Part shown: positions 23,422-40,371 of the stretch, piece after piece
How the letters are laid out: every line of letters begins with the position of its first letter
Position numbering within the stretch: the first letter of the stretch is position 1
Origin: Bacteroidota bacterium
GTDB lineage: Bacteria; Bacteroidota; Ignavibacteria; Palsa-1295
DNA: 64,000 bases
Assembly: GCA_021324735.1 (NCBI GenBank)
Contig: JAJPIO010000008.1
Span: 22,508 to 86,507 of the forward strand
Direction of reading: 5' to 3'
Position numbers and translations under genes: made by a program
Notes under the pieces: model-generated
What the model was told of the DNA's origin: nothing
What the model saw: only the letters and a program-made list of their open reading frames with translations
Databases searched by the model: none

Positions 23422-24027
23422 TTACTGTAGCGATTTAATTATCGCTGCGATCTGCTCCGGATTTCGCTCGATCCCTTCTCGACGAAAGACGATATGGCCT
23501 TGCTGGTCGACTACCAAAATCACATTAGAATGCGAGAAATCGCCGGTAGGCAGCTCTTTATATTTCACATCGAATAAGTTGGCAACGGTCTGGATGTCTT
23601 CCTGGCTACCATGTAATAGTTGCCAGTGATCATCCAAATGAACGGCATCAGAGTAGCTGCGCAACTGCGCCCCCGTGTCGCGCTTGCTGTCGAACGAGAT
23701 AAGGGTAAATCCAACGTTATTTCGCACCGACTCTTGTAGCAGTCCCTCCGCGTGTTTAATTTCGTAGGTGATCATCGGGCACGTAGCCTGGCAATGGGTA
23801 AAGACCATTGCCATTACTTGCACTTTGCCTTTCAGTGATTGCCAGGAAATGTGCTCGCCATTCTGATCGTCGAACATCATATCGACATCGTAGATCGAGC
23901 CGGCACTTCGTGCAATTGTTGTCGGTGCATTCGGTGCATCCACTGCAGCGCTTCCCGTCCGTTCGTGGGAGCAGGAAGAGAGCGCGAACGCACAGAATGC
24001 GCAGATAAGGATCGTATACGTTTTCAT
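23422..24027 (-). CDS. SCO1/SenC copper chaperone lipoprotein
   Basis: Lipobox LSSC, FTHCQATCP (CxxxC), D..RDT, distal His in FSHS. ATGA overlap with the upstream gene. Confidence 0.92.
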   Translation of the reverse strand: MKTYTILICAFCAFALSSCSHERTGSAAVDAPNAPTTIARSAGSIYDVDMMFDDQNGEHISWQSLKGKVQVMAMVFTHCQATCPMITYEIKHAEGLLQESVRNNVGFTLISFDSKRDTGAQLRSYSDAVHLDDHWQLLHGSQEDIQTVANLFDVKYKELPTGDFSHSNVILVVDQQGHIVFRREGIERNPEQIAAIIKSLQ

Positions 24028-24833
24028 TTTACACATCGGAAGCCGAGATCATCGACCACATAATTTGCTTTGAGGCTGCTTCGCATTGCGAAGCGCATGA
24101 ACGTGGCGTAGTCCGTTGGATCGATCGAACCGATGGCGCCGGCACCGCAGACCGCCGGACCACCGGATGTACCGCGAGCATCGCCCGGCACGATCACGCT
24201 TGAGAAATCATCGGTCCACTCCCAAACCTGGCCAAACATATCGCGCAATCCGAATGCGTTCTCATTGACCGTCCCGGCTGGCGCGAGCGTCTTCGCCATT
24301 GGTTTCGAGTACCACGCCAGTATTAAAGATTGCTTCGCACGAGCCGTTGCGCGTACCGGCTCGACGATCGGCGCCGACGCTGCATATTCCCATTGCGCTA
24401 CGGTCGGAAGATGTTTATGGCACCATGCGGCGTAGGCCCGCGCCGCGAACCACGATACATTGACGACCGGTGCATTTACGAGCGCATTATTCCCGATCTC
24501 GAAATCGCTCTGCCACGCTTTCAGGTAACCTTTCTCCGCCAGCATCGGAGAGACGCGCGACCGCGACCACTTCGGATTCGTCTTCACGAATTCCAGAAAT
24601 TCGCCGTTCGTGACAGCCCTTGCATCCATGTGATACGTTGATATCCACACCGAATCGATACCCTTCACGATGTAGAACGGACGGTAATATCCACCTGGAA
24701 TGCAAACCATGCCACTCACTGGTGCAAGCTCGTGCGGATGCTTTCTCTGATGCGACTGTGCGAACGCAGGATGTGCGAGCACCAGCGCAAGAGCGAACAG
24801 GAGAACGGCCTTCGGTCGAATGCGCCCGCTCAT
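24024..24833 (-). CDS. Formylglycine-generating-enzyme (FGE-sulfatase) family protein, NirV-like nirK accessory
   Basis: VTNGEFLEFV, PVVNVSWFAARAY, LPTVAQWEYAA, N.FGLRDMFGQVWEW, LGFRC; directly after nirK. Confidence 0.88.
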   Translation of the reverse strand: MSGRIRPKAVLLFALALVLAHPAFAQSHQRKHPHELAPVSGMVCIPGGYYRPFYIVKGIDSVWISTYHMDARAVTNGEFLEFVKTNPKWSRSRVSPMLAEKGYLKAWQSDFEIGNNALVNAPVVNVSWFAARAYAAWCHKHLPTVAQWEYAASAPIVEPVRATARAKQSLILAWYSKPMAKTLAPAGTVNENAFGLRDMFGQVWEWTDDFSSVIVPGDARGTSGGPAVCGAGAIGSIDPTDYATFMRFAMRSSLKANYVVDDLGFRCVK

Positions 24834-25861
24834 TACTGCCCCTTCTCTGGGTGCGGCGAGTAGACGGTAGAATCGAGATTGCCGGTTGCAACAATATCGG
24901 CCACCGCGCCCTGGTTGAACGCCCGGAAGATCGCGTGATCGACAATATGATAGATGCCCGGCTCTCGGACCTTGAACTCGACGATGGTTGCACCGCCCGG
25001 CGGAATAGAGGTCGTCGCAACGTTGTGGATCACGTCCGTACCACCCTGATTGTAAAGATTGTCGAAGATCTCTCCGATCACATGGAAAGAGGACGTGAGA
25101 TTTGGTCCGCCGTTGCCAACGAAGAGCCGTACGGTTTCGCCGGTCTTAACATTGAGTGCTTTCGGTCCTAACGTCGAACCGACTGCGCCATTGAAGACGA
25201 CGTACGTCGGTTTCTCGTCGATCGCATTCTGAATGGAGAATTCCTGGAGTCCCGTATCAGCGTATTTCCCGACGGTGTAGAGTTCACCTTGCATAAGATA
25301 GAACTCGTGATCGACGGGCGGCAGTGGATGTTCACGCGATTCCACATAGATGAGGCCATACATGCCGTTCGCGATGTGCAGCCCGACTGGCGCAGCCGCG
25401 CAGTGATACACATAGAGGCCCGGGTTCAAAGCGCGGAATGTGAAAACCGAACTATGGCCAGGCGCCGTGTACGAGGCTTCAGCGCCGCCGCCGGGCCCGC
25501 TGACAGCGTGCAGATCGATGCTGTGCGGCATCTTGCTCGAGGAAGGATTCGTAAGATGAATCTCCACCTCATCGCCTTCCATCACGCGAATGAACTTGCC
25601 AGGCACATTGCCGCCAAAGGTCCAGAACGTGTAATACGTACCGTTGGTGATCTGCTTGACGACTTCCTGCACTTCCAAATGCACGATCACCTTTTGCGGG
25701 CCATCGGTCTTTACCTGTTTCGGTACGAGGGGTGCATCGGTAAGTTCAGCGTCTCGTACACCAGTGATGGTGGAAAGATCGGACTTATTTTTCGAGCACG
25801 CAGCAAAATTGAGGAGGAGTGCTGCTAATACAGTATATTTTAGATGCGGACGGATTCGCAT
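24833..25861 (-). CDS. nirK: Copper-containing nitrite reductase, lipoprotein (AniA-like)
   Basis: Lipobox FAAC; PHSIDLH, YHC...[15 protein letters not shown] and VDH supply the type 1 and type 2 Cu ligands plus the catalytic Asp and His. Confidence 0.95.
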
Positions 25862-25956
25862 AAAGCTTTATTTCAAATTATTCAAGCGCAGCCGTGCTTT
25901 CGGTAGTGATAAACTACCGTGGACACAGCATACTTGGTTGGAGAGTGAAGGAGAGC

Positions 25957-25981
25957 GGCGCCCGCCCGTGGGCTGGGCGCC
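25957..25981. other. GC-rich intercistronic hairpin between cytochrome c and nirK
   Basis: ggcgcccgccc-gt-gggctgggcgcc; no U-tract. Confidence 0.5.
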
Positions 25982-26006
25982 TGCTACTCCAGGGGGAGGA
26001 GAATAC

Positions 26007-26453
26007 TTACGGTTTGTACGTCGGGCTGAGCGAGCGTACGTAGGCGATCAACTGGACGACCTGATCATCCGTTAGTTGCGGCTGGGCCGGCATCGTCGGA
26101 TAACCGAACTGTGCACCACCATTCTTAATAACAAGGTAAATGTGCCGGTTCGTTAGTTTATCCATGTAGGCACCGTTCGTATGATCGCGCGGCTTCGGAT
26201 TAAGCGCGGCAGCGGCCGGGCCATCGCCCTTACCACGCGGGCCGTGACACGGTGCGCAGGTCTTCTGGTACAGGTCGTTACCTTTGGCGATGTTATCCGG
26301 AGTCATCGCAACATCGAGCGGCTGCTCCGCGGGAGCGGCTGCAGTCGTTGCCTGCGGCGTACTCGCAGTTTTATCGTCACTATTCAATTTCTCGTCACCA
26401 CCACACGAGGCCAAGGCGCCTACGAGTAGTAATGCTCCTAAGTATTTCATCAT
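26007..26453 (-). CDS. Monoheme c-type cytochrome lipoprotein
   Basis: Lipobox LASC, CAPCHG..GKGDGP, PRDH, distal MP, LIAYVRSL. Confidence 0.92.
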   Translation of the reverse strand: MMKYLGALLLVGALASCGGDEKLNSDDKTASTPQATTAAAPAEQPLDVAMTPDNIAKGNDLYQKTCAPCHGPRGKGDGPAAAALNPKPRDHTNGAYMDKLTNRHIYLVIKNGGAQFGYPTMPAQPQLTDDQVVQLIAYVRSLSPTYKP

Positions 26454-26483
26454 TGGTATGTAGAGTCCTTCCTTAAGTAAAGT

Positions 26484-27344
26484 TTACTGTTGTGAATCAG
26501 AACTTTCGGATCCCGTTTGTTTCGGAGCCGGTGAATCCGTGTTGCGACCATCGACGTATTGATCGGTCGATTGTAACGACCACACATAGTTCGCAAGATG
26601 CCAACGGTCGGTCTCGCTTAGGGAGGCGGCGTACGACGGCATCGGCGTACCATTTAAGCCGGTCGAGAAGATCCGAAATACGTCCAGGACGGAGTGGCTG
26701 AATTTGTAATCGGATGGATTGGTCAGGTCGGTCGGCCGAATCGGATTCTTAAAATCGTCGACTAACGACGAGGCCGAAGGTCCATTGCCTTCGCCGCCCG
26801 ATCCGTGGCAATTGGCACATTGCATTTGCAAGAACAGTGTGCGGCCTCGCTCCAGACTTTGCGGGCTCGGCAGGACCTGCGTCCCGACGTTTAACACATC
26901 GAGCGGGTATTCGGTTGAGTCTGCAAATCGTGGCGACAATGTTTTGATGTACTGCACGATCGCCCAGCGGTCCTGCTGTCGCATTTGCCGGAATGATGGC
27001 ATGGCCGTGTTATGCAAACCAGTCGTGATCGTTCGGAAGAGATCGTAATCGGTTGGCAGTTCGCCACTCGCGGTCGATCGATTAAGGTAGATCCCTTTTG
27101 TAAGGTCTCTTGGCTTCGATCGAAGGTTCGCTGAGATCGGGCCATTGCCCGTACCATCCGCGCCGTGGCACGGGGCACAGGAAATATTGAACATCGCCTT
27201 GCCATGCTCGAGCGTTTCCGTGCTCGGCACTGGAGTGGCTGTCGTCATCGGATCGGGCGTGGTCGATGGATCACCACCACTGAACTTCACCGTTAGACCG
27301 GCAATGCTAATCGCGGCTGCAATAGTTAAAGTTTGTAGATACAT
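26484..27344 (-). CDS. Diheme c-type cytochrome
   Basis: Two internally repeated domains: CAPCH...TAMPSF and CANCH...TPMPSY. Confidence 0.92.
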   Translation of the reverse strand: MYLQTLTIAAAISIAGLTVKFSGGDPSTTPDPMTTATPVPSTETLEHGKAMFNISCAPCHGADGTGNGPISANLRSKPRDLTKGIYLNRSTASGELPTDYDLFRTITTGLHNTAMPSFRQMRQQDRWAIVQYIKTLSPRFADSTEYPLDVLNVGTQVLPSPQSLERGRTLFLQMQCANCHGSGGEGNGPSASSLVDDFKNPIRPTDLTNPSDYKFSHSVLDVFRIFSTGLNGTPMPSYAASLSETDRWHLANYVWSLQSTDQYVDGRNTDSPAPKQTGSESSDSQQ

Positions 27345-27358
27345 GATAGTGTCTCCTC

Positions 27359-28648
27359 TTAAAATCCGAAACGAAATCCGATTCCGGCCGTGCTATTCGT
27401 CTGATCGACGGTCTTGGTACCATTGGGCGTCGCGACTTCATTTGAAATCGTATAAACCCCGGTCATAAAGACGTTGGGCAACAAGTGATATTGAAAGCCG
27501 ATGTCGATCTGATGCTGGTTGTCGCTTGTCTCTTTCTGATTATTGAAATCATAGCGCCCATAAATATAGAATCGCTCGGGTGCGATGATCACGTTAACCC
27601 CAACAAATCCTGCGGTGATACTATAGGATGTACCTGCGGCATCGACATTGTCGTCCGTGCCGATCATATACTGACTGTAGAGATCGATGCGCTTCGTCCA
27701 GGGATCGTAGAGTTCAAAGTTGACGCCTTCGCGAGTCATGGTGTTGTGGGCTTGAATGGGCGCTCCCGCAATCGAGTCATTGATGTTCGTTAAGTTCTCG
27801 AAGCCGGTGTATATAAAGCCGCCAATTCGAAGCGGAGCATTGCTTACATAGAATGTTTGGTTGAGTGAACCAAAGAATGCTCGCGCCTTCGTCAGGTCAA
27901 TATCGCTGCCAGTGCCCCCGCTGATGCCCGCGTCCCATTTGAGACCTTCACCGATTCCTGGTATCATACCAAAGGCCGAAAATCCAAAATTCGGATCGGC
28001 GAACGATAGCGTGTTAGCCCTCGAAACACCGGCTATACTTCCGATCGGATCGTAGGAATAAACTAATGGATCGGCATTCGCCAATAAGACCTGATGCTGA
28101 TAGGGAATGAAGAATCGGAATCGTCCCAATCGAAAATTGAGAGAACCCGAGCCATCATTGAGCGCGTCCGTGTACATGAGGTTTGCCGTCTCGACATCGA
28201 TCGTCGCCGGTTGACCGTTGCCGATCGCCACTGGAAGTCCGGTATAAAAAGAGAAATGTGCACCGAGTGAAGCAGAACTGAATAATCCTACTTCAATACC
28301 AGAAAAGGATGTTGCCGATACTGCCGGAGCGACCGCGCCGGTCGAATCAGCTAAATTATTCTGCGACCGATTATAAAAGATCATCGGCTGCGCCACGACT
28401 CCCATTGCAAAATTGGGCTGGTCCGCCTGGGCGAACCGTTCGAGCGTCCCTGGCAACTGATATCCATTTGCCTGGAATCGAAGCCCAAAGTCATTGAGCA
28501 ACGGTGGCGTCGTGTGGCATGTAAAACACGTCGTGTTATACTTGCGGGCGAAGACGGGTACCGCTTCTGCGCGGTCCACAGCCATTGCAGTGATCAGTAT
28601 CGCCACCGCAATGCTTAACGAAGTAAGGATTCGAGCGTGCGGTCTCAT
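27359..28648 (-). CDS. cyc2: Cyc2-like outer-membrane cytochrome-porin fusion, copy A
   Basis: Signal peptide then AVPVFARKYNTTCFTCHTTPPLLNDFGLRFQANGY, matching the Cyc2 N-terminal AxPxFAR-CxxCH-PxL-G..F...GY signature. About 350 aa of amphipathic strands end in FRFGF. ATG at 28648 overlaps the upstream stop. Confidence 0.82.
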   Translation of the reverse strand: MRPHARILTSLSIAVAILITAMAVDRAEAVPVFARKYNTTCFTCHTTPPLLNDFGLRFQANGYQLPGTLERFAQADQPNFAMGVVAQPMIFYNRSQNNLADSTGAVAPAVSATSFSGIEVGLFSSASLGAHFSFYTGLPVAIGNGQPATIDVETANLMYTDALNDGSGSLNFRLGRFRFFIPYQHQVLLANADPLVYSYDPIGSIAGVSRANTLSFADPNFGFSAFGMIPGIGEGLKWDAGISGGTGSDIDLTKARAFFGSLNQTFYVSNAPLRIGGFIYTGFENLTNINDSIAGAPIQAHNTMTREGVNFELYDPWTKRIDLYSQYMIGTDDNVDAAGTSYSITAGFVGVNVIIAPERFYIYGRYDFNNQKETSDNQHQIDIGFQYHLLPNVFMTGVYTISNEVATPNGTKTVDQTNSTAGIGFRFGF

Positions 28649-29481
28649 TGCAATTCGAAGTCTACAGTGGAAGTACCATCCGCCGAAACGGTGACTTGTT
28701 GCTGCTTTACGACTGCACCGGAGAATGCAGGGCGGCCATTGGGCATGCCGGTGAGTTTCCAGCCTTCGTGCCACATGATGACGTTGTATGTTCCGGCCGG
28801 CAAACCGCCGATCGAATACGAACCATCCGCTTTGGTGACGGCAACGTATGGATTATCGCTGACCCAGATCCAGGAATTCATCCACGGGTGAATGTCGCAT
28901 TCGACGCTCGTCATGCCAGCTTTGCGAAGTGGCTGCGCGGTTTGCTGTCCTTTTGTCGGTTGTCCAAAATTGAATGCCGTCGTCCGATCCGATCCGCTCT
29001 GAAAATAACCATGCACATTATGCATCATGTCATCATCATTGAAGAATGTGACGGAGCTTCCACGAGTGGCCACGGCCATATGCGGTGAGTAACGGCAGCC
29101 CTTTTGGGTGATCGTCACAGCAGGAAAGTTTGCTCGGGGTCCCGCCGGCGGATTGGAAATGTAGACGAGCGTATACTCGACCCCATTACCTTTACTGACC
29201 ACCAGCCGATCGTAAGAGGCTGAAGTACCACACGCCTCCATATTGGTCTTCGCTCGTTCGAGCTTCGGGACGGCCCCGGAAAATGTGACCTTCCCGGAGA
29301 TCGTACCACCGCTCGGAGCGGTACTATGATGACCAGCAGCAGGGCCGGTAGGGGCGCTCGGAAGCATCAAAAACCCAAAGCTCGTCGCAAGGAATAGGAC
29401 TACGAGGAATGCGATGTCACTTTTGGAAACAAGCGGTCCATTGGAGTGGCCGCTTACATTGAAGGGATTCAGATTGTACAT
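28645..29481 (-). CDS. Periplasmic cupredoxin-like protein with carboxypeptidase-regulatory-like domain
   Basis: GAGG RBS, N-terminal hydrophobic segment, QKGCRYSPH, HNVH...CDIHPWM (type-1-Cu-like His...CxxHxxM), DGSYSI..LPAGTY. Confidence 0.75.
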   Translation of the reverse strand: MYNLNPFNVSGHSNGPLVSKSDIAFLVVLFLATSFGFLMLPSAPTGPAAGHHSTAPSGGTISGKVTFSGAVPKLERAKTNMEACGTSASYDRLVVSKGNGVEYTLVYISNPPAGPRANFPAVTITQKGCRYSPHMAVATRGSSVTFFNDDDMMHNVHGYFQSGSDRTTAFNFGQPTKGQQTAQPLRKAGMTSVECDIHPWMNSWIWVSDNPYVAVTKADGSYSIGGLPAGTYNVIMWHEGWKLTGMPNGRPAFSGAVVKQQQVTVSADGTSTVDFELQ

Positions 29482-29721
29482 AATTACCTCATGCAGGATG
29501 ATCTTTTATTTCGGCGTGGGCGAGAAATCGATCGGAATCATGCTTCCACGTCGTTTTACCCTTCCTCCAGGGCCCATCCGAAGCCGTCTCAAGGAAGGCG
29601 TAAAAACTTTACGTTAAAAACTTAGTGTAGAAGTATGCCAGTGATGAATTGGGACAAAAACCGTTAAAAATACTGGCGATAGTGAGAAATTAACCCTCAA
29701 GAAATTTACAGCGCTCGACTC

Positions 29722-29745
29722 ACAGTTAAATTTCTTTACGGTTAC
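29722..29745. promoter_or_regulatory. Candidate operator GTWAA-N5-TTTAC, copy upstream of the cupredoxin-cyc2-nirK operon
   Basis: acagttaaatttctttacggttac matches 36685-36708 at 19 of 24 positions. Confidence 0.4.
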
Positions 29746-29849
29746 AAACCGCCTCTCTTTTAGAGAATAATCCTTTAAAACGGGACAGGCCGCATACACT
29801 TGAGAGCTGTACATGCGGCCAAGGGTAACAATCGTAGGCTTTTAAGCGC

Positions 29850-31352
29850 CTATTTTAAGCTTTCCAGAAACGCGGTGAGGTAGGTCATCTCTTCGTCGGA
29901 GACTTCGACCGGATCCATATTCCCATCACGCATTTTCTGGGTTGGATTGCGAAGGACCTTTATGAGTTCATTGTGGTCAAACTTGAGACTCACTCCGATA
30001 AGCTTTGGTCCATTTTCGGTGCCCTGGGCACTCTCTCCGTGGCAACCATCGCAGGAGTTATCGGCGAAGATCTTTTTACCTTTAGTCGCCTCGGGGCTAA
30101 GCGGCGCTGCCGTTAGCGCGGGCGAACCCATTACTTCCGGCTGGAACGCAGCGCTCATAAATTTCTCGGTCTCGCCGGCTTGCTTCGCTAACTGCTTGGC
30201 AACCGCCGGGTCGCTCTTATCCTGATCACCGCTCTGCCATCCCAGGAAGACCAAGCCTAAGAAAATGATAGCGAAAGAGAACGATGCTACCGGACGCTTC
30301 CACGGACGGCGCTCGCGGCGGCGATCCATAAACGGAAGCACTACCAGCAATGCGGCAATGATACCAGGAATGACAACGATACCAATAACGGCCGTCTCGC
30401 CTTGCCAGTACTTGAGCCATTGGAAGATCGGCAGATAATACCACTCCGGACGCGGAAGGAATTGCGTATCGGATGGATTCGCTTTCGGGCCGAGATCGAC
30501 CGGCGAAAAATAGGATAATAATCCGAGCGTCGCCATGATGATCGTCGCGAACACGAGATCCATAATGACCTGCCGTGGGAAGAATTGCTCCGTCTTCTGC
30601 TTTGGCTCGAACGAATCTTCACTGATGGGGCCTGCGGAGCCTGCTTTACGGAATAAGTAGATGTGCATTCCGACAAATGCGAAAATGCAAGCCGGAATGA
30701 GAAATACGTGCGCAACAAAGAAACGTGATAGCGTCAGTGTGCCCATCTCTGTGCCGCCACGCATGAGGCTCTTGATCCAATCGCCAATGAACGGCACTTC
30801 ACCGGCGATGTTCGTGCCTACGGCCGTTGCAAAATAGGCTTTCTGGTCCCACGGAAGTAAGTATCCCGTGAACGCCATGCCGATCACCATCGCAAACAGG
30901 ATGAGACCGGACATCCAGAGGATCTCGCGACGTCCTTTGTAGGAGCCGAAGAAGTACGTTTGTCCTAAGTGGACGAGCAGTGTTACGACCATCGCGCTCG
31001 AGCCATACGAGTGTAAGCTTCGAAGGAACGCGCCGGCCGTTACTTGCTTCGTGATGTATTCGATCGTCGTATGTGCATGGTCCGCACTGGCGACGTAATA
31101 CATGGCGAGAAATACACCGGTGATGATCTGCGATAATAATATATAGAGCAGGCCCGAGCCGAAAACATAGGCCCATCGGGCGCCACCTGGTATCGGCTCA
31201 TCGAGCGCTTCATGGGAAAGAGCACGAATACCCGTGCGCTTATCGAGCCATCCAATAAAGCCATTCACTTTTGCTCCGTTCATCGCTTTACGAGACTTGC
31301 CGTTCGTTTGCACTTGCGTTTCTACGAGTTCGGTGATAGTGTTTTGAGACAT
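29850..31352 (-). CDS. Cytochrome b (b6 plus subunit IV-like) fused to C-terminal cytochrome c; bc-complex subunit
   Basis: ITGVFLAMYY, RSLH...LVHL, TGYLLPWDQKAY, TLSRFFVAHV...MH, PEWY, C-terminal CDGCH. Confidence 0.93.
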   Translation of the reverse strand: MSQNTITELVETQVQTNGKSRKAMNGAKVNGFIGWLDKRTGIRALSHEALDEPIPGGARWAYVFGSGLLYILLSQIITGVFLAMYYVASADHAHTTIEYITKQVTAGAFLRSLHSYGSSAMVVTLLVHLGQTYFFGSYKGRREILWMSGLILFAMVIGMAFTGYLLPWDQKAYFATAVGTNIAGEVPFIGDWIKSLMRGGTEMGTLTLSRFFVAHVFLIPACIFAFVGMHIYLFRKAGSAGPISEDSFEPKQKTEQFFPRQVIMDLVFATIIMATLGLLSYFSPVDLGPKANPSDTQFLPRPEWYYLPIFQWLKYWQGETAVIGIVVIPGIIAALLVVLPFMDRRRERRPWKRPVASFSFAIIFLGLVFLGWQSGDQDKSDPAVAKQLAKQAGETEKFMSAAFQPEVMGSPALTAAPLSPEATKGKKIFADNSCDGCHGESAQGTENGPKLIGVSLKFDHNELIKVLRNPTQKMRDGNMDPVEVSDEEMTYLTAFLESLK

Positions 31353-31373
31353 GATCGTATTCCTCTCGTATGA

Positions 31374-31991
31374 TTATGCAAGAACTTCTTTTGATTTTAC
31401 CAGCGGACGGAACGACTGATATTTCACCTGCAGGCGCCCATCGGTCACGCGTGTTTCGAGCTCATCGAGGTTACGCGGTGGCGGACCCGAAAGCAATTTG
31501 CCATCAGCAGCAAATGCACCATTATGGCACGGACACTTGAATTGTTTACCGTCGTCATTCCACTTTACCGAGCAGCCAAGATGCGGGCAGGAGGAGGAAA
31601 GCACCGCTAAGCTATTATCTGCCTTCTTCACAACATAGACGGCCTTTTCGCTAACGACTTTGCGCCAACCATCAATATTAGTGATATTGATCGTCCTCTT
31701 TTGTGGAATGCCCGTTTCCATGAAGTCACTGGTGGGGCCGAGATCGGTCCACGAGGTTTCCGTTGCGGCGCGTGTAAGCGGATCGAGTGCGAAACGAACG
31801 AGCGGCACGGACAAAAACCCGCCAACGCCGACCGTCCCTAATCCTAACCAGGCAAGAAAAGCCCGCCGGCCAGTGACCGGGCGGCTTTCGTTATCATCAA
31901 CATGCGTGGTATGTCCTACTGAACTTCCACTGGTCTTTTGATCTTCTCGATCGTCCTTATGGTGTTGGGCCACCGTTCCTTTTTGCATCAT
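31374..31991 (-). CDS. Rieske [2Fe-2S] subunit of bc complex
   Basis: Tat-like GRRAFL plus TM helix, CPHLGC, CPCHNGAF, GPPPR.L. Confidence 0.93.
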   Translation of the reverse strand: MMQKGTVAQHHKDDREDQKTSGSSVGHTTHVDDNESRPVTGRRAFLAWLGLGTVGVGGFLSVPLVRFALDPLTRAATETSWTDLGPTSDFMETGIPQKRTINITNIDGWRKVVSEKAVYVVKKADNSLAVLSSSCPHLGCSVKWNDDGKQFKCPCHNGAFAADGKLLSGPPPRNLDELETRVTDGRLQVKYQSFRPLVKSKEVLA

Positions 31992-32110
31992 AGATTCACT
32001 ATACTGTATTATTATCCTTTCGGGTGATCCGCGGGGGACATCACCACGCATGTTGAGTGTCTATCTTAAATCGGAGTAAGCAGCTACTTCTTTATTAAAT
32101 AGGAAGCAGC

Positions 32111-32467
32111 TTATTTCTTTTTGAGCGACGAAAGCCAGCTCGTGAGGGTCTTGAGTTCATCCGAAGAGCCACCGAACTTTTTCATGTGCTTTTTGCCGTT
32201 CATTTCTTCTTCTTTATTGAGCCACTTCTGCATCCAGTCGGATGTGTGCTTTAGTCCGACGCCGGAAAGATCGGGAGGAAGTTTGCCACCGGCCGGGGCA
32301 GAACCTTGACGCTCAATTCCCTGCGATTCGATCGAATGGCATTTGGAGCATTTGTTGTCCAGGAAGATCGCTTTGCCATCTTTCGAAGCGACGGTTCCGA
32401 GCGATCCCGCGGAGGTCAGCGCAAACGCTGCCGCCGTTAGAATAACAGGTATGGAGAGTTTCTTCAT
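32111..32467 (-). CDS. Small periplasmic monoheme cytochrome c (paralog of 34679-35062)
   Basis: Signal peptide, CSKCH, PDLS.VG, KKHM, L..WL.SL. Confidence 0.9.
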   Translation of the reverse strand: MKKLSIPVILTAAAFALTSAGSLGTVASKDGKAIFLDNKCSKCHSIESQGIERQGSAPAGGKLPPDLSGVGLKHTSDWMQKWLNKEEEMNGKKHMKKFGGSSDELKTLTSWLSSLKKK

Positions 32468-32821: not shown

Positions 32822-34219
32822 TTATTGGATCCAAATCATTCGGATCGTCACACTATTGTCGTTCTGATCCGGCTTCGTAGTGCCATCACTGAAGATTCCC
32901 TTCTTCGTGAATTTGTCCTTGTATTCACCGATAAGTTGAAAACCATCGCCGAATGCGTAATTCACAAATGCTGTGATGGCATTTTGCGCGGTGAGTCCGG
33001 TGGTGCTCGCATTACCGTTCTTGTCCTTGAAGACGAAGGTCGTGGATGGCTCGAAGTAATCGTACCGGGCGCCAAAGCCAAACTGATCGAACGGCATGTA
33101 CCGGCCTTCGAGGAAGTATCCGCTGCTATTGAAGTTGTCGCCGATCACATGGTTCTTCGTGTCCCAGGAAGCGTCGGTGCCAGACTGGTATCCGCCCAGA
33201 AGCAATGCTTTCTGGATCGGATAGCTCGCATAGATCGCATAGCGCAGGAAGTTGTTCGGATAAAACTTCATGTTGCCAAGCGAGTCGCGCTCGGCGGGCA
33301 TTTCGTTCTGACCGCGATAAAAGTAGCCCGAGATACCGCCGCCATCATCCGTCAGCAACTGTGTGACCGTGAATTGAAGGTCGAATGTGCCGCCGAACAT
33401 ATCGCTGAACTTGTTGCGATTCGGCTTGATAAGAAGGCCACCTTGCGCCGGCTGACCGATCCAGCCTCGGCCATCGTCGACCGAGTCCGCGTAAATACCG
33501 TTGAAGATCGTGCCGCGAAGGAACGTGTTCTTGTACGACCATCCGAGTTCCACACCAACTTGATCGAAGCCCCACGGCTGGAATTCCGTCGAGAAATCCG
33601 CGCTCGACGTATTATTGGCCGCATTGCTCGTCTTAGGTGGCGCGCCGCCTTGAAAGATCGGACGCGAGAGGCCAAGCGGACGATCGAACGCACCGTAGCC
33701 TTCGAACGGGTGGAATATACCGGCCTTTACGGACCAATAATTCTCTTCCTCACCCCAATTGTAGCGGACGAACGCGTTCTCGATTTCCCATACGTCTTCC
33801 GGAGAATTCGAGAGCTCCACCAAGCTCGAAATGTTTTTCGTGATCGATCCGGTCAGAGGATAGAGCGTTACCTCGAAGAATTGGATGTCGTTTTGGTTGA
33901 GCGTCGTCGCCGAAGCAGTGGGTGAAGAAGTGGTCTTCGTCTGGGCGATATGCTCCGCATTGACTTGAATGCGGCCGGCAAGATAATCACCGAGATTGAA
34001 CGGGATTTTCGAATCTTTCCCGATCTCTTCCGGAAGCCGGTAGCCCGCCGACCGAAATTTGAAGCCGAATTCGTTCAAACACGGAACGACTGTGTGGCAC
34101 GCAGAACAGCCGAGATTATATTTACGCGCGAAGTTCGGCATCGCCGAACTTGTGCTCGAAAATGTCGCTACCAGCATGGCTGCTGCCAAAAAGCTGATGG
34201 ACAGGCGTAGAGAACGCAT
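32822..34219 (-). CDS. cyc2: Cyc2-like outer-membrane cytochrome-porin fusion, copy B
   Basis: Signal peptide then AMPNFARKYNLGCSACHTVVPCLNEFGFKFRSAGY, followed by a porin-like region (GVELG, GYFLE, GARYDYF). Start taken at MRSLRL. Confidence 0.82.
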   Translation of the reverse strand: MRSLRLSISFLAAAMLVATFSSTSSAMPNFARKYNLGCSACHTVVPCLNEFGFKFRSAGYRLPEEIGKDSKIPFNLGDYLAGRIQVNAEHIAQTKTTSSPTASATTLNQNDIQFFEVTLYPLTGSITKNISSLVELSNSPEDVWEIENAFVRYNWGEEENYWSVKAGIFHPFEGYGAFDRPLGLSRPIFQGGAPPKTSNAANNTSSADFSTEFQPWGFDQVGVELGWSYKNTFLRGTIFNGIYADSVDDGRGWIGQPAQGGLLIKPNRNKFSDMFGGTFDLQFTVTQLLTDDGGGISGYFYRGQNEMPAERDSLGNMKFYPNNFLRYAIYASYPIQKALLLGGYQSGTDASWDTKNHVIGDNFNSSGYFLEGRYMPFDQFGFGARYDYFEPSTTFVFKDKNGNASTTGLTAQNAITAFVNYAFGDGFQLIGEYKDKFTKKGIFSDGTTKPDQNDNSVTIRMIWIQ

Positions 34220-35264: not shown

Positions 35265-36032
35265 ATGATAACTCCTTTAGATGCTCTCATCGCGATCATT
35301 GCAATTACCCTTGCGATCGATCTTTTCCTGGTCTTTCGACCGGCTGCCACTCACGGTTCCGGCGGGCGCCTGCTTGCATTTCTCGGTATCTTCCTCATGC
35401 CACTCCTTATCACTGGTATGGCTTTCGATACCCACATGGAGACATCGAAGCAAACGGAGTATTGCCTCTCTTGCCACACGATGCTAACGCACGGCCTAAG
35501 TTTGTATGTCGACGATAAAGAATATATCCCGGCTGTACACTTCCAGAACCATCGCGTGCCGAAAGAGAAAGCATGTTTTACATGCCATACGCAGTACACC
35601 CTCTATGGCGATTACGCTGCGAAAATGCGTGGATTGCGACACATTTATTATCAGTACATCGGTACGATACCCGACACGATAAAGCTGCACGAGCCGTACA
35701 ATAATCGCGAGTGCCTGCACTGCCATGAAGGTGCGCGAAGCTTTGAGGAACAATCCATTCACACCGGTTCGCCGGGGCAGATGGATTCGATCAAGCGCAA
35801 TGAGATCTCCTGCCTCTCGAGTGGATGTCATGATATCGCGCACGATGCAATGAAGCTCGATCGCGTCCAGCTATGGGAGCCGTACGATGCCCGCTACCGT
35901 CCGGCGTGGTTTCTCGATACGCTCGCGCGAAGCCTCGCACACATTCAGCCAAGCCACATTGTACGAAGTCCGGCGGAAAACAGTACACCAGCGGCATCAC
36001 CAGACGCTACTTCCAATACTGAATCGAATTAA
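35265..36032 (+). CDS. NapC/NirT/CymA-family membrane-anchored tetraheme cytochrome c
   Basis: Two N-terminal TM helices; TS...YCLSCHTM, CFTCH, AK.RGLRH, CLHCH and an atypical CLSSGCH. Confidence 0.87.
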   Translation: MITPLDALIAIIAITLAIDLFLVFRPAATHGSGGRLLAFLGIFLMPLLITGMAFDTHMETSKQTEYCLSCHTMLTHGLSLYVDDKEYIPAVHFQNHRVPKEKACFTCHTQYTLYGDYAAKMRGLRHIYYQYIGTIPDTIKLHEPYNNRECLHCHEGARSFEEQSIHTGSPGQMDSIKRNEISCLSSGCHDIAHDAMKLDRVQLWEPYDARYRPAWFLDTLARSLAHIQPSHIVRSPAENSTPAASPDATSNTESN

Positions 36033-36044
36033 GGGAGAATACAA

Positions 36045-36362
36045 ATGAAACGTACCCTGAACAAACTGGAGCGGCGAATTCGCAAAGCGGCCGCAATGAT
36101 CGTAATAGGTTTAGCAGGCACGCTGGCTTCGCTTCTCATTTTTCATCCGCTTTCATTCATTGGGTTTATCATCGTGGGCATTGCGCTGATGCTCTTTGCG
36201 AATGTTTACTTCCTTTATGCTTTGATTCGCGGTCCAGGCAAGGAGCGGGCGATCGAACAGGCTGCGACACAGGAAGTAATTACAATGCAGCCCGAAGAAG
36301 GGGGTAAAACGGAGCCTGAAATAAAGCCAGAATTGACGCCCGAATACGTCCTGGCACCGTAA
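36045..36362 (+). CDS. Small two-TM membrane protein
   Basis: 12 bp after the NapC-like gene with a GGGAG RBS; two hydrophobic segments. Confidence 0.7.
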   Translation: MKRTLNKLERRIRKAAAMIVIGLAGTLASLLIFHPLSFIGFIIVGIALMLFANVYFLYALIRGPGKERAIEQAATQEVITMQPEEGGKTEPEIKPELTPEYVLAP

Positions 36363-36374
36363 CATTTCTACCAA

Positions 36375-36562
36375 GATTTATTGTGCAAGAGCCTCTCGTC
36401 GAGAGACTCTGTATCATCGCGTGTACCGATCATCTCTGATCGCCGGTCGTGGCAAGTTGCACACTCTCATTTTTTGTGGCAATCTCAACGAGTCTCGCGA
36501 TCGGAGATCGCGAGTACACCGTGCCGATTTATTGTACAAAGAGCCTCTCGTAGATAGGCTCT
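36375..36562 (+). repeat. Imperfect 36/37-nt direct repeat containing a hairpin; second copy acts as terminator
   Basis: gatttattgtgcaagagcctctcgtcgagagactct (36375-36410) versus gatttattgtacaaagagcctctcgtagataggctct (36526-36562, followed by a T-run). Confidence 0.65.
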
Positions 36563-36684
36563 TTTTTTACGCTAAGAAAGGGCGAGAATGTAAGAGATAT
36601 TGCCGTATTTGCATTAAATCATAAAGAATTCGGCTCCGACTTTGGAAAATTTTTACGCATCTGATAAGAAAGCTTACGTTCAAT

Positions 36685-36708
36685 ACAGTTAAGTAATTTT
36701 ACGGTCAC
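36685..36708. promoter_or_regulatory. Candidate operator GTWAA-N5-TTTAC upstream of the decaheme gene
   Basis: acagttaagtaattttacggtcac; a related site GATAA-N5-CTTAC lies at 36663-36677. Confidence 0.4.
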
Positions 36709-36912
36709 GCCCTTTATTGCTTCTTTTTCATAGTTCTTTACCGTGGCACCTACCTTGACTTGCGCTCTCCCTGCATATTGGACCGAATTAGCCAAACTTT
36801 CGCACTGACGGAATAGAATCGGAATCGAGGCCCCTCCTTCCGATCGCAAAAAGTACTTGACTCGCTCGTCCTTTGGCAAAAGTGTATTCACTTATCTCAT
36901 GTGCATTATAGC

Positions 36913-37935
36913 ATGAAGAAACTACTCTATTATCTCCTATCCGCGGCCGGAGTAGTGTTCCTCTTCGCAGCCTTCGATGGCAGCCCGAAGCAGGCAGCAC
37001 CGCCCACGCCCATTATACAATCGCATACCCAGCACTCGGCTGGCGCTTGCGCGCTCCAGGGCGGCGCAACGACCAAGAGTTCTGAGGAATGTTCCTTTGC
37101 GACGAAGAGCACACCTATCGTTAGGGTAACCAGTGCCGGTCCCAGCGCCTGCGCCGAGTGCCATGAAGATGAGGTCAACGCTTTTTATCGCACGACTCAC
37201 TCGAAATCGTGGCAGAATGGCATGGCGTGCGAGCAGTGCCACGGCGACGTTTCGAAACACATCGCATCCGGCGGAGCGCAAGGTACGATCACGAACCCTG
37301 CGAACCTGACGCCACAAAAGCTCTCTGAGACGTGCTTGAAATGCCACGAACAGAAGAGTGAACAAAGTCACTGGAAGGTCAGCGAGCATGCGCGCGCTGG
37401 CGTAGCCTGCGTGACTTGCCACGATGTTCATCCCTCGAAAGAGCAAAAGACGGATATGAACGCAAAAGGCAAGAGCGCAATGATACGCGGCACACAGACC
37501 GAGCTCTGCCTCAAGTGTCATACGCAAACGGAAGCCGACTTCAACAAGCCGACACACCACCGCGTAATGGAAGGCACGATGCAGTGCACCGATTGCCACA
37601 ATCCACACGGCTCCGATAAGCAGCACCAGCTACGCGCCGATACAAAGACGCTCTGCGTGAAATGCCATCAGGATAAACGTGGACCGTTCATGTACGAACA
37701 CAATGCAATGTCGACCGATGGTTGCCTTGCTTGCCACGAACAGCACGGCTCCTCTGCACGCAACATGCTGAAAGTACACGACGTCCGCGAACTGTGCGAG
37801 AGCTGTCATAGCGCCGAAATGGGCGTAGGACCGCCACACGGCCGCGGTAATCTCAGTACCACGTCTGGTGGCGATTGCACACGCTGTCACGTTGCTGTTC
37901 ACGGCTCCAACCGCGATAAGTACTTTATTGAATAG
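36913..37935 (+). CDS. Periplasmic decaheme cytochrome c, DmsE/MtrA/MtoA/PioA family
   Basis: Ten CxxCH motifs (CAECH, CEQCH, CLKCH, CVTCH, CLKCH, CTDCH, CVKCH, CLACH, CESCH, CTRCH), NPHGS, KRGPF.YEH, C-terminal VHGSN. Confidence 0.95.
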   Translation: MKKLLYYLLSAAGVVFLFAAFDGSPKQAAPPTPIIQSHTQHSAGACALQGGATTKSSEECSFATKSTPIVRVTSAGPSACAECHEDEVNAFYRTTHSKSWQNGMACEQCHGDVSKHIASGGAQGTITNPANLTPQKLSETCLKCHEQKSEQSHWKVSEHARAGVACVTCHDVHPSKEQKTDMNAKGKSAMIRGTQTELCLKCHTQTEADFNKPTHHRVMEGTMQCTDCHNPHGSDKQHQLRADTKTLCVKCHQDKRGPFMYEHNAMSTDGCLACHEQHGSSARNMLKVHDVRELCESCHSAEMGVGPPHGRGNLSTTSGGDCTRCHVAVHGSNRDKYFIE

Positions 37936-37947
37936 GAGGACTCACCC

Positions 37948-40371
37948 ATGACACTAAGTAAAAATCTTTCTATCACGAAGAGCCTCCGCTCGCTCGTAAT
38001 CCTTGTGGTGCTCCTCGTTTCGGCGACTGTTGCGAATGCGCAGGAAGCCACGACCACACCTCAGGGTATCGACGCCGGTAATTATCTCTTTAACCTGGGT
38101 CTTACCGCAGGCTATCGCAGTTCGTCGTTGACGAATGCAGATGGCTCGGTCGATCCATGGTCGGAGAGGCGCTTTAACGAAGCGTATAATCTTCAGACGG
38201 GACTCAACCTCAACTCCTTCTATTTCTACGGACAAAAGAAGGGCACGGAGGGATTCTTCGATGAGCTGTACGCAACTGCTTCCGGCATTAACGATCCGTT
38301 CACGACGGGCAGCTTACGGATGCGATCGTTCAACTCGTACGATCTGAAGATCGACTTCCGCCAGCAGAAGTACTACCTCAATCGTAACGATTCGATCCTT
38401 TCCGGTCTGCACAAATTCGACTTCGCACGTTCGACGTTCAATGCATCCCTCGATGTCAATGCATCGGATAACGTCAAAGTCAATTTGCAGTATAACCAGA
38501 CGGGACGTAACGGCAATGCGACCTACACGCACAATGCAATGCTCGATGCGCTCAGCGCTCCGGGGTATTCGCAAGGACCGTTCTGGGTAAGCATTCCGCG
38601 TAACGATGAGACCAAGGACTTCCTGGCCTCGATCAACTGGAAAGCAGATCCCTCCACCGCGATCACGGTCGGTGGCGGACTTCGCTCCTATACTCAGCAG
38701 CTTAATGGCTCATTACTCGCCGATAGCTCGCTTCCGCTTACCTATATTAATCTTGGTCCTGGTGTCTACACCTACGATCCGACGAAGCAGCCTCTTATCA
38801 ATGACTTCTCGGGTATGTACGGTGCGTACATCGCGCCAAGCACAAAAGCGGGTGCGTCGGTCAGTGGTACCAATCCGTTGTGGATGAATAATTACGCGTA
38901 CTCGGAGAACCGCGACAGCAAGACGCCATACTTCTTCTTCGAAGGCTCTTCTCATCCGATGGATAAGCTCGACGTTACGGCGAACGTCTCGTACGAAAGC
39001 ACAGACATGAAGCCGACGATCAGCTTCAATCAGGGTGGCTGGGCTGGTGGCCTGGTAAAGCAAGGCACCAACTACGTTACTTCCGATTCGTCCTATCTCT
39101 ACACGATGCAGGGCAGCGGTATGGAGTTAAAGACCTCCCATTTGAACGCCTCGTTGAACCTCGTTGGACAACTGATGGACGAACTCTCCATCACCGGACG
39201 CTATCAGTACAACACAAGCAGTGAGGACGGCAACGGTTCCTACCTCTACAATGTGCAAATGTACCTGAAGAATGGCTCCGCCGGTAAGGACACGGGCACC
39301 ACAGCAAGCATGCTCTCCAGCTATAAAACGACTCAGCAAGTGATCGAGGGATTCCTGAATTACTCGCCGATCGAAATGCTTGCAGTAAAAGCCGGCGTGC
39401 AATATTCGATGACGACTCCGACGGTCGCGCTTACCACGCCGATCACGGGTATTCAGGAAACGCCGGACTCACTCACCAATGCGATCCTTTCGCAGAAGAT
39501 CAACAACTTCACACCGTACATTAATTTTAATTTACGGCCGTCGAAAGACTATCGTATTGATGGACGCTACAGTCATACGACCAGCACCGAGTACAATGCA
39601 GCAGGTACGCAGGTCGATCAGACCGTACGTATCGATCCGAACACGAGCGATAATTACTCGGTCGGTATCCAGGGCTCGCCGATGGACCACTTCACTGGCT
39701 CTCTGCGCTACACGGGACGCGTTGGTAAGTCAACGTTCCTGGCTACGACCGTTCAGAACGGAACGATCGGTGGCGAAGTACGCCGTCAGATCACGCTGGA
39801 TGCTCGTCCGTACGATAACGAAATGTCGTCGATCGATGCATCGATCGGCTATTCGTTCTCGAAGATGTTCTCCGTCTTCGTTTCGGGCGAATATCGTAAT
39901 AACAAGTACGCTATTCCGTGCACGTGGGGTACGATCGCGAACGGTGGTACTTCGCTATTCGCACAAGCGACCTATGGCGACTCCGGTACCGAAGTCATCT
40001 CGCAGAATACGATCGATCGCTTTATCGATATGACACTGCGTTTGAACCCGATCGATCCGTTGCACATCGAGGCCGGCTTCGCACTTAACTCCACGAGTGG
40101 TGGTACGAACGTAGACACCTCGATGAAGAGCCTCTACAACGCTCAGACGAACCCGACAGGTGTTTACCAGGACCGCATGCTCTATGGCGGACCGTACTCC
40201 TCCTACGATCTCCATGCGCAGATCGCCTATGACATTACGCCGAATGTAGGCATCATGGCTGATTACCAGCTTGTGCAATACAAAGAGGATAAAGTCAGTT
40301 GGGCGGATTTCTACGCGTTGAACAACTATAAAGCGAGCCTGTTACGAGGCGGATTCAGCCTGAAGTTCTAA
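37948..40371 (+). CDS. MtrB/MtoB/PioB-like large outer-membrane beta-barrel
   Basis: 12 bp after the decaheme gene with an AGGAGG RBS; signal peptide, 807 aa of amphipathic strands, C-terminal FSLKF, no CxxCH. Confidence 0.82.
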   Translation: MTLSKNLSITKSLRSLVILVVLLVSATVANAQEATTTPQGIDAGNYLFNLGLTAGYRSSSLTNADGSVDPWSERRFNEAYNLQTGLNLNSFYFYGQKKGTEGFFDELYATASGINDPFTTGSLRMRSFNSYDLKIDFRQQKYYLNRNDSILSGLHKFDFARSTFNASLDVNASDNVKVNLQYNQTGRNGNATYTHNAMLDALSAPGYSQGPFWVSIPRNDETKDFLASINWKADPSTAITVGGGLRSYTQQLNGSLLADSSLPLTYINLGPGVYTYDPTKQPLINDFSGMYGAYIAPSTKAGASVSGTNPLWMNNYAYSENRDSKTPYFFFEGSSHPMDKLDVTANVSYESTDMKPTISFNQGGWAGGLVKQGTNYVTSDSSYLYTMQGSGMELKTSHLNASLNLVGQLMDELSITGRYQYNTSSEDGNGSYLYNVQMYLKNGSAGKDTGTTASMLSSYKTTQQVIEGFLNYSPIEMLAVKAGVQYSMTTPTVALTTPITGIQETPDSLTNAILSQKINNFTPYINFNLRPSKDYRIDGRYSHTTSTEYNAAGTQVDQTVRIDPNTSDNYSVGIQGSPMDHFTGSLRYTGRVGKSTFLATTVQNGTIGGEVRRQITLDARPYDNEMSSIDASIGYSFSKMFSVFVSGEYRNNKYAIPCTWGTIANGGTSLFAQATYGDSGTEVISQNTIDRFIDMTLRLNPIDPLHIEAGFALNSTSGGTNVDTSMKSLYNAQTNPTGVYQDRMLYGGPYSSYDLHAQIAYDITPNVGIMADYQLVQYKEDKVSWADFYALNNYKASLLRGGFSLKF

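Follow-up and report, generated by a model that had tools for sequence, protein, structure and literature searches.

A Cyc2 module and a nitrite reductase cassette lie in one seven-gene array

The DNA studied here (the window: the whole 64,000-nucleotide stretch, G000:C19:22508-86507) comes from a 3.55 Mb genome in 19 contigs that is rated 100% complete. At positions 23422-29481 it carries seven minus-strand genes, which encode in reading order a cupredoxin, the Cyc2-family protein Cyc2A, a diheme and a monoheme c-type cytochrome, the copper nitrite reductase NirK, an FGE-family protein and an SCO protein. The array is very probably a composite, in which a conserved Cyc2 module is joined to a self-contained cassette of nirK, a NirV-like gene and sco. 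The genes and the features by which they were recognized are:

28645-29481, minus strand: membrane-anchored type-1 cupredoxin that ends in a CarboxypepD_reg-like domain, the gene with which the module starts (ligand set, weak amicyanin and blue-copper matches)
27359-28648, minus strand: Cyc2A, a Cyc2-family protein of 429 amino acids, predicted to fuse a monoheme cytochrome to a porin (Cyc2 motif, one CXXCH, signal peptide)
26484-27344, minus strand: diheme c-type cytochrome, partner of Cyc2 (CXXCH at residues 56 and 176)
26007-26453, minus strand: lipoprotein monoheme c-type cytochrome, last gene of the module (conserved lipobox Cys, Pro/Ala/Thr linker, CAPCH)
24833-25861, minus strand: two-domain copper nitrite reductase NirK, Clade II, probable lipoprotein (TIGR02376, structure match, SSFHV)
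24024-24833, minus strand: NirV-like protein of the FGE-sulfatase family (PF03781, 108.6 bits)
23422-24027, minus strand: SCO1/SenC copper chaperone, a lipoprotein, last gene of the cassette (PF02630, 77.6 bits; CxxxC at residue 79; lipobox)

The open reading frames as listed on the minus strand were 28645-29481, 27359-28774, 26484-27344, 26007-26453, 24833-25861, 24024-24833 and 23422-24036. We set the start of cyc2A at the Met before its signal peptide (28648) and that of sco at the second Met (24027), and with these adjusted starts the intergenic gaps were -4, 14, 30, 145, -1 and -4. Identical gaps between seven minus-strand genes had been given in an earlier description of this DNA made without database searches (the sequence-only reading), and its gene names proved correct when judged by domain scores, heme and copper motifs, the Cyc2 motif and a NirK score above the cut-off. 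The minus-strand array extends further upstream than that description had it, with a cytochrome b/c fusion, a Rieske protein, a small cytochrome c and a second Cyc2. From sequence and distribution, the first four of the seven genes appear to be a conserved electron-transfer module dedicated to Cyc2, and the last three a predicted nitrite reductase with two copper-maturation helpers that landed directly behind it.

Cyc2A carries the sequence features of the Cyc2 family

Cyc2 proteins are defined by a single CXXCH, preceded by A-x-P-x-F-A-R-[Q/K]-[T/Y] and followed by P-x-L, in a protein of at least 365 amino acids (Keffer 2021, PMC8406198). In Cyc2A, a signal peptide (a hydrophobic leader ending in A-E-A) precedes the sole CXXCH, which lies at residue 41. 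Residues 29-37, upstream of this site, read A-V-P-V-F-A-R-K-Y and thus reproduce the published motif; the spacing from motif to Cys is 3 residues, where the text of Keffer 2021 (PMC8406198) gives 5. The P-x-L element, expected about 4 residues past the CXXCH, is found as P49-L50-L51 after H45, and in an alignment of homologues L51 was invariant and P49 nearly so. With its 429 amino acids the protein also exceeds the minimal length. By the published sequence definition, the protein encoded at 27359-28648 is thus assigned to the Cyc2 family.

The porin half of Cyc2A, for which the family definition has a 16-stranded beta-barrel, is indicated only indirectly. The C-terminal residue is Phe, and among 61 family members porin domains were detected as Porin_4 (13 of 61), OMP_b-brl (15 of 61) and Porin_O_P (7 of 61); Cyc2A itself reached a weak E of 0.46 in the porin-family search. 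The protein matched no Pfam or NCBIfam family, and its family profile gave nothing meaningful against solved structures (best E 0.74). The Atlas model of Cyc2A has a pTM of 0.78 with unnamed structural neighbours, and an amphipathicity scan was too noisy for a strand count. All 144 homologues found lack a name as proteins; the relatives with an organism name are metagenome-assembled genomes (MAGs) labelled Candidatus Kapabacteria, Kapaibacterium or Ignavibacteriae.

The partners of Cyc2A

The cupredoxin gave weak whole-protein scores below the cut-off (amicyanin, 23 bits; a blue-copper chain, E 7.7e-4). It carries a C-x2-H-x2-M site at residue 195, and the ligand columns H154, C195, H198 and M201 were invariant in 35 of 35 aligned homologues, which makes up the type-1 copper set. 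For a wider view of Cyc2 neighbourhoods we used 80 Cyc2-family loci (L054-L133) drawn from genome_contigs, with the window's genome (G000) and its relative G050 not among them. A cupredoxin homologue stood beside the Cyc2 gene in 34 of these 80 loci, spread over several phyla.

The cupredoxins of these 34 loci had the same invariant His-Cys-His-Met set. The loci were labelled Bacteroidota, Acidobacteriota, Myxococcota, Verrucomicrobiota and Chlorobium, with one MAG of the Acidithiobacillales, and the cupredoxin gene preceded Cyc2 in the Bacteroidota-like loci and followed it in most others.

A diheme c gene was next to Cyc2 in 19 of the 80 wider loci. Within the genus its distribution was exactly that of cyc2A: all 10 cyc2A-positive genomes have it and none of the 5 cyc2A-negative ones does. 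We therefore consider it, in this genus, a dedicated partner of Cyc2 and not a general carrier. Its best solved relative was 6h5l chain B, deposited as a 'conserved hypothetical cytochrome protein' (E 3e-51), which is presumably the diheme partner of a nitrite-reducing hydroxylamine-oxidoreductase-like enzyme of an anammox bacterium. The monoheme cytochrome has its CXXCH at residue 66; its best NCBIfam match was cytochrome 579, and with 55 bits against a cut-off of 280 it is not a member of that family.

A two-domain NirK with two maturation proteins

NirK scored 316.9 bits, and 316.8 in a second search, against TIGR02376, above the cut-off of 296.3, and matched the core of the cytochrome-fused NirKs 6qpt and 3ziy with an E of 3e-123. 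Its H-x-x-D-x-H, H-C, H-x4-M, S-S-F-H and D-H columns are identical to those of 6qpt and were invariant in 16 sequences; presumably these are the type-1 and type-2 copper ligands together with the catalytic Asp and His. The sequence S-S-F-H-V agrees with the Clade II signature SSFHV/I/P as defined in PMC4770552. The N-terminus shows a lipoprotein-like signal, as in the outer-membrane lipoprotein NirK 1kbv.

Unlike 6qpt and 3ziy, the NirK of the window has no tethered class I cytochrome c domain at its C-terminus: the protein ends at 342 amino acids, contains no CXXCH, and its stop codon overlaps the next gene. Its orthologue in G050 keeps the fused domain. In the NirK tree the enzymes of the genus formed one clade (100/100), and the other members of the surrounding group have open frames of 481-532 amino acids, the size of cytochrome-fused enzymes; the fused domain itself was confirmed directly in G050 only. 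This nesting among outgroups of fused size, with the fusion kept in G050, suggests that the two-domain NirKs of G000, G157 and G209 probably lost the domain. A NirK that lacks its tethered cytochrome needs a separate electron donor.

The FGE gene directly followed nirK, and sco directly followed the FGE gene, in 5 of 5 nirK-holding genomes of the genus. This is reminiscent of the nirK-nirV operon of Rhodobacter sphaeroides (PMC1262709), in which the gene for NirV, a member of the FGE family (PMC1262709, PMC4770552), follows nirK; NirV accompanies nirK in about 61% of NirK genomes (PMC4770552). In contrast to the known nirK-nirV pairs, the cassette described here includes an SCO copper chaperone and is docked to a module assigned to iron oxidation.

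Linkage of the cassette to the module in relatives

The comparison covered 201 genomes from the class, 35 from the family and the full set of 15 from the genus. Strong cyc2A orthologues were present in 10 of the 15 genus genomes, and the order cupredoxin-cyc2-diheme c was syntenic in all genus loci examined, in other families of the class and in Kryptoniota-labelled MAGs. What follows the module varies. The cbb3 oxidase operon ccoI-ccoNO-ccoP comes next in G080, G189, G060, G157 and two metagenome contigs, a lyase paralogue in G209 and G208, and convergent genes in G207 and G040. In G000 the module is followed by nirK-FGE-sco, and the cbb3 genes are found on a different contig, preceded by unrelated genes. 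Downstream of sco no synteny with relatives was found.

The second case of linkage is G050. There one strand carries, in order, the cupredoxin, cyc2A, diheme c, nirK (with the fused cytochrome c), FGE, sco, nosZ, nosL, nosD, nosF, nosY, monoheme c, ccoI, ccoNO, ccoP and ccoG. The monoheme c gene, directly upstream of ccoI, is in frame with nosY, with no stop codon between them (L169:5843-7231). The cassette was therefore joined to the module at different junctions, after monoheme c in G000 and between diheme c and monoheme c in G050, which argues against a single unchanged ancestral arrangement. In the RpoB tree G000 grouped with G196, G060, G040 and G050 with moderate support (93/95); within this group the cco arrangement is found in G060, and G040 is without nirK. 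The cassette may have been captured independently, or once with later rearrangement and losses; the data are compatible with both histories.

The G050 monoheme cytochrome is 63% identical to that of the window, and the locus encodes either a single protein in which the NosY permease is fused to the cytochrome or two closely coupled genes. In four other cyc2A-positive genomes (G207, G040, G209 and G208; completeness 89-98%) ccoNO was not found at E <= 1e-50, so that their Cyc2 modules may lack a cbb3 partner; G209 and G208 still hold nirK.

Since the genome is in 19 contigs and the relatives are all MAGs, we considered whether the join between monoheme c and nirK might be chimeric. The G+C content is somewhat higher across positions 24001-26000 (0.553 versus about 0.48-0.53 nearby), as could be expected at such a join. 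On the other hand, nirK is joined to the same module in a second, independently assembled species (G050), the contig of 115,705 bases has ordinary genes on both sides, and the junction contains no repeat or N. We consider an assembly artefact highly improbable.

The sequence-only reading had proposed that in this array an oxidase is replaced by nitrite reductase. The comparison lends this idea real support, with ccoI-ccoNO-ccoP behind the module in four species of the genus and nirK there instead in G000 and G050. The site behind the module would then be a docking place for periplasm-facing terminal reductases, occupied by a cbb3 operon in the four species, by nirK here and, in one species, by an island of nirK and nosZ with cbb3 behind it.

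The rarity of the linkage weighs against a functional tie between Cyc2 and NirK. Within the genus nirK was found in 5 of 15 genomes, all five of which also hold cyc2A (5 of 10 cyc2A-positive and 0 of 5 cyc2A-negative genomes, a sample too small and too phylogenetically dependent to count). Cassette and module are linked in only two of these five, G000 and G050. In the other three (G157, G209 and G208) the three-gene cassette is located elsewhere, beside nnrS, and it therefore works without the module. Across the class sample, 20 genomes had a strong cyc2A match, 24 had nirK over the cut-off and 6 had both, again with linkage in G000 and G050 only. None of the 80 wider Cyc2-family loci had a nirK match within 10 kb, nor was nirK near Cyc2 in any of 5 metagenome loci, which are few and carry little weight. 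The neighbourhood search that had been suggested for cyc2 and nirK thus extended the linkage to one further species, and failed to extend it to the wider loci or to the 4 other class genomes that hold both genes.

The main rival explanation draws on these counts. It states that an independently regulated cassette for nitrite detoxification or partial denitrification was rearranged to a place behind the terminator of the Cyc2 module, that NirK is fed by a chain of quinol, Rieske/cytochrome b and cytochrome c during organotrophic growth, and that Fe(II) is not involved. Consistent with this, the cassette is autonomous in 3 of 5 genus genomes, the variable context downstream of the module (cco genes, lyase, convergent genes) may mark a recombination-prone site, and the Rieske/cytochrome b complex just upstream could feed the same cytochromes. 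Mere adjacency is less readily reconciled with the finding of nirK at or inside the module by two different junctions in two species, with the position of the G050 island, which separates two genes of the module and runs in frame into one of them, or with a diheme cytochrome that is Cyc2-specific in the genus. Overall we regard this rival as rather unlikely.

The gap between monoheme c and nirK

Folding of the 145-nt gap in front of nirK revealed two structures:

25950-25990, minus strand: GC-rich hairpin after the monoheme c stop, terminator-like without a U tract (folding energy -32.4 kcal/mol, z -3.9)
25883-25936, minus strand: further extended hairpin in this gap, with its end about 20 nt upstream of the nirK start (from folding)

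The first is the hairpin that had been predicted near 25957, and it is real: it begins 16 nt past the monoheme c stop codon, and none of 200 shuffled sequences folded as well. The gap as a whole folds at -57.4 kcal/mol (z -5.3), which was likewise equalled by 0 of 200 shuffles. A terminator pattern scan had skipped the hairpin at 25950-25990 because it has no T run. In place of the U tract there is a C/U-rich stretch, which may weaken termination.

At the same place after monoheme c, G080, G189 and G040 have a hairpin with a U tract, and in G080 and G189 the cco genes come next. Because relatives carry this structure even in front of cco genes, we conclude that the module normally ends in a terminator and that adjacency in the genus is not proof of co-transcription. 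The -32 kcal/mol hairpin of the window sits where relatives have intrinsic terminators; this conserved position favours the rival of an independently regulated cassette and counts against one common transcript. The sequence-only reading had named full termination at this hairpin, together with a promoter in the gap and lack of the linkage in related genomes, as what would overturn it. The outcome lies halfway, as the hairpin is present and the linkage is kept in one further species only. On balance its interpretation is supported in part.

Promoter scans were uninformative for this lineage. A sigma-70 scan returned 15 sites versus 9.7 expected, and no minus-strand site fell within 25862-26006 or 29482-29849. 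TAnnTTTG is the Bacteroidetes-type promoter motif, and a scan for it gave 28 matches versus 27.4 expected, with none in the relevant gaps. A difference between linked and unlinked nirK genes emerged from their upstream regions. The unlinked nirK genes of G157 and G209 (L037, L048) share an element of about 22 nt starting CGAAATCGG, which may be a regulator site and which neither of the linked nirK genes (G000, G050) has in front of it. Apart from the G157-G209 pair, no 9-mers were shared upstream of nirK among G000, G050 and the unlinked genes. The lack of the CGAAATCGG element speaks against a cassette that merely kept its own regulation behind the module. Taken together, two transcription units with partial read-through of a hairpin that lost its U tract seem most likely, and we put the odds of such read-through at about even.

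A possible electron route from Fe(II) to nitrite

Combining these data, we propose that the composite is docked at the terminal-reductase site of the module and that electrons flow from Fe(II) through Cyc2A and the carriers to NirK, a reading for and against which we find the evidence evenly balanced. Cyc2A would oxidise dissolved Fe(II) at the outer membrane and pass the electrons to the diheme cytochrome, the cupredoxin and the lipid-anchored monoheme cytochrome; this small carrier pool would deliver them to the type-1 copper of the lipoprotein NirK, which would reduce nitrite to nitric oxide (NO). For the separate steps our confidence differs. That Cyc2A oxidises Fe(II) we hold to be somewhat more likely than not, and that electrons derived from Cyc2 reach NirK in vivo we would put slightly on the doubtful side.

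A broader form of this proposal holds that the Cyc2 module is a dedicated intake for extracellular electrons, repeatedly wired by selection to N-oxide reductases, with nirK captured at two junctions and the lipid-anchored monoheme cytochrome replacing the lost cytochrome domain of NirK. We consider this version doubtful. A descent of the monoheme cytochrome from the detached NirK domain was rejected, as BLASTP against the fused NirK of G050 gave an E of 0.013 over 19 residues.

The respiratory inventory of the genome sets further bounds on the proposal. The only heme-copper enzymes were caa3-type (CoxA-type) and cbb3-type (CcoNO) oxidases, and therefore no Nor was found. Nar/Nap was not found in the genome (the molybdopterin family PF00384 gave only one weak 36-bit match), nor were cytochrome d1, NosZ (nothing above 27 bits) or RuBisCO; the lack of the last also fits with organotrophic growth as the rival of adjacency without coupling would have it. 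NnrS is present, and NirK was the only denitrification enzyme found in the genome. Given that Nar/Nap, Nor and NosZ were not found, the organism falls short of full denitrification and of complete nitrate-dependent Fe(II) oxidation. By established bioenergetics, when NirK and its electron donors are all in the periplasm, nitrite reduction moves no charge over the inner membrane, a point also made in the Ferrigenium preprint (bioRxiv 10.64898/2026.01.22.701106). Without charge movement by NirK, and with no Nar/Nap, Nor, NosZ or RuBisCO found, a wire from Cyc2 to NirK is therefore expected to act as an auxiliary sink or detoxifier and not in growth respiration, unlike one from Cyc2 to cbb3. In a microaerophile with caa3 and cbb3 oxidases it could serve as an auxiliary electron sink or remove nitrite and Fe(II), and it is not expected to sustain autotrophic growth on nitrate.

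Relation to known iron-oxidising systems

The rus operon of Acidithiobacillus ferrooxidans comprises cyc2, cyc1, cup, coxBACD and rus, which are co-transcribed (Quatrini 2009, PMC2754497), and the analogy that the sequence-only reading drew with it is accurate. As in the rus and petI operons described there, Cyc2, a diheme cytochrome, a cupredoxin and a terminal reductase stand in one array in the window, and a Rieske/cytochrome b complex with its own cytochrome c is encoded nearby (PMC2754497). There are also clear differences. Our array belongs to a Bacteroidota-like, presumed neutrophile with two Cyc2 paralogues, its cupredoxin is amicyanin-like with an extra CarboxypepD_reg domain, and the acceptor genes are those of cbb3 (in sister species) or nirK (here) instead of aa3. 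Co-transcription is shown for rus and conjectural for the present array.

Cyc2A, a predicted fused cytochrome-porin, shares the defining motif with the Cyc2 proteins of Zetaproteobacteria, Gallionellaceae and Chlorobium (Keffer 2021, PMC8406198). The chain of Cyt572, Cyt579 and cbb3 in Leptospirillum (PMC10654088) likewise leads from an outer-membrane cytochrome of the Cyc2 family through a periplasmic monoheme cytochrome c to a cbb3 oxidase; its genes are reported in that source as not clustered, in contrast to the clustering seen here. The nitrate-reducing Fe(II) oxidiser Ferrigenium straubiae has cyc2, NirK and cbb3 in one organism, with no physical linkage of cyc2 and nirK described in the available part of the preprint (bioRxiv 10.64898/2026.01.22.701106), which calls the electron route to the redox partner of the nitrite reductase under autotrophy unclear. 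A literature search, supplements not covered, found no published report in which a Cyc2 module is physically linked to nirK or nosZ.

Whether nitrate- or nitrite-coupled Fe(II) oxidation is carried out by enzymes, or is only a chemical side reaction of nitrite and NO, is still a matter of debate. The locus and its G050 sister name testable donors (Cyc2, the diheme and monoheme cytochromes and the cupredoxin) and an acceptor, NirK. They make an enzymatic flow of electrons from Fe(II) to nitrite testable and do not prove it. In the broader form of the proposal, which we consider doubtful, the arrays, if co-transcribed, would represent the first genetically hard-wired enzymatic pathway from Fe(II) to nitrite (and from Fe(II) to N2O). 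More generally, the module could serve as a portable front end behind which a cbb3 oxidase, NirK, or NirK with NosZ is plugged in. This significance is tempered by the presence of NirK only and by the finding of no autotrophy gene, which make a sink or detoxifier more likely than a growth metabolism, and by the confinement of the cyc2-nirK linkage to two uncultured species.

A neighbouring electron-transfer island

Further genes for electron transfer lie upstream of the array and on the plus strand:

29850-31352, minus strand: cytochrome b with fused cytochrome c
31374-32051, minus strand: Rieske protein
32111-32467, minus strand: small cytochrome c
32822-34219, minus strand: Cyc2B, a second Cyc2-family paralogue heading the Rieske/cytochrome b block (full Cyc2 motif)
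35265-36032, plus strand: NapC/NirT-family cytochrome with three CXXCH and a variant site
36901-37935, plus strand: cytochrome of 344 amino acids with ten CXXCH
37948-40371, plus strand: protein of 807 amino acids with a signal peptide, a C-terminal Phe and no Pfam family

With these upstream and plus-strand cytochrome genes, the region is an island for iron and electron transfer that comprises more than the seven-gene array. The three plus-strand genes at 35265-40371, neighbours of the two Cyc2 genes, look like a porin-decaheme conduit of the MtoAB/PioAB type with a CymA-like quinol dehydrogenase.

This setting bears on a second rival explanation, in which the module is not an Fe(II) oxidase: Cyc2A and Cyc2B would serve outward transfer to Fe(III) or humics, or would take electrons from another extracellular donor, and NirK would be one of several periplasmic sinks in a general island for extracellular electron transfer. 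The NapC/NirT-type cytochrome, the decaheme cytochrome and the 807-residue outer-membrane-type protein encoded in the same 20-kb region resemble porin-cytochrome conduits that are used in both directions. In the tree, Cyc2A falls in a Bacteroidota/Kryptoniota clade (support 100) apart from the Chlorobiota/Chlorobium sequences, and thus outside the Chlorobium (Cluster 1) group. Keffer 2021 (PMC8406198) states that function outside Cluster 1 needs verification and allows for other Cyc2 functions. Both points weigh against an Fe(II)-oxidising Cyc2A. Against the rival, every biochemically tested Cyc2 named in the available text of PMC8406198 oxidises Fe(II), and the gene arrangement resembles that of the rus and petI operons in an iron oxidiser (PMC2754497). 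Moreover, the module is usually accompanied in this genus by a high-affinity cbb3 oxidase, which consumes electrons and does not supply them. We judge a module without an Fe(II) role to be improbable, and Fe(II) oxidation by Cyc2A to be somewhat more likely than not.

Cyc2B contains A-x-P-x-F-A-R-K-Y, CXXCH and P-x-L, is 32% identical to Cyc2A over residues 8-126 and was placed in a separate clade of the tree. The block at 29850-32467 (small cytochrome c, Rieske protein and cytochrome b/c) is kept upstream of the module in relatives, and headed by Cyc2B it was kept in G080, G157, G207 and two metagenome contigs. In its arrangement the block resembles the petI operon, from which it differs by having an outer-membrane cytochrome of its own.

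Between cytochrome b and the cupredoxin, G080, G189, G050, G040 and G157 have a gene for a beta-eliminating lyase of 456-461 amino acids (e.g. L032:7809-9194). It is absent from 29482-29849 in the window and from the equivalent spot in G207, and copies of it are found on contigs C12 and C5 of the window's genome.

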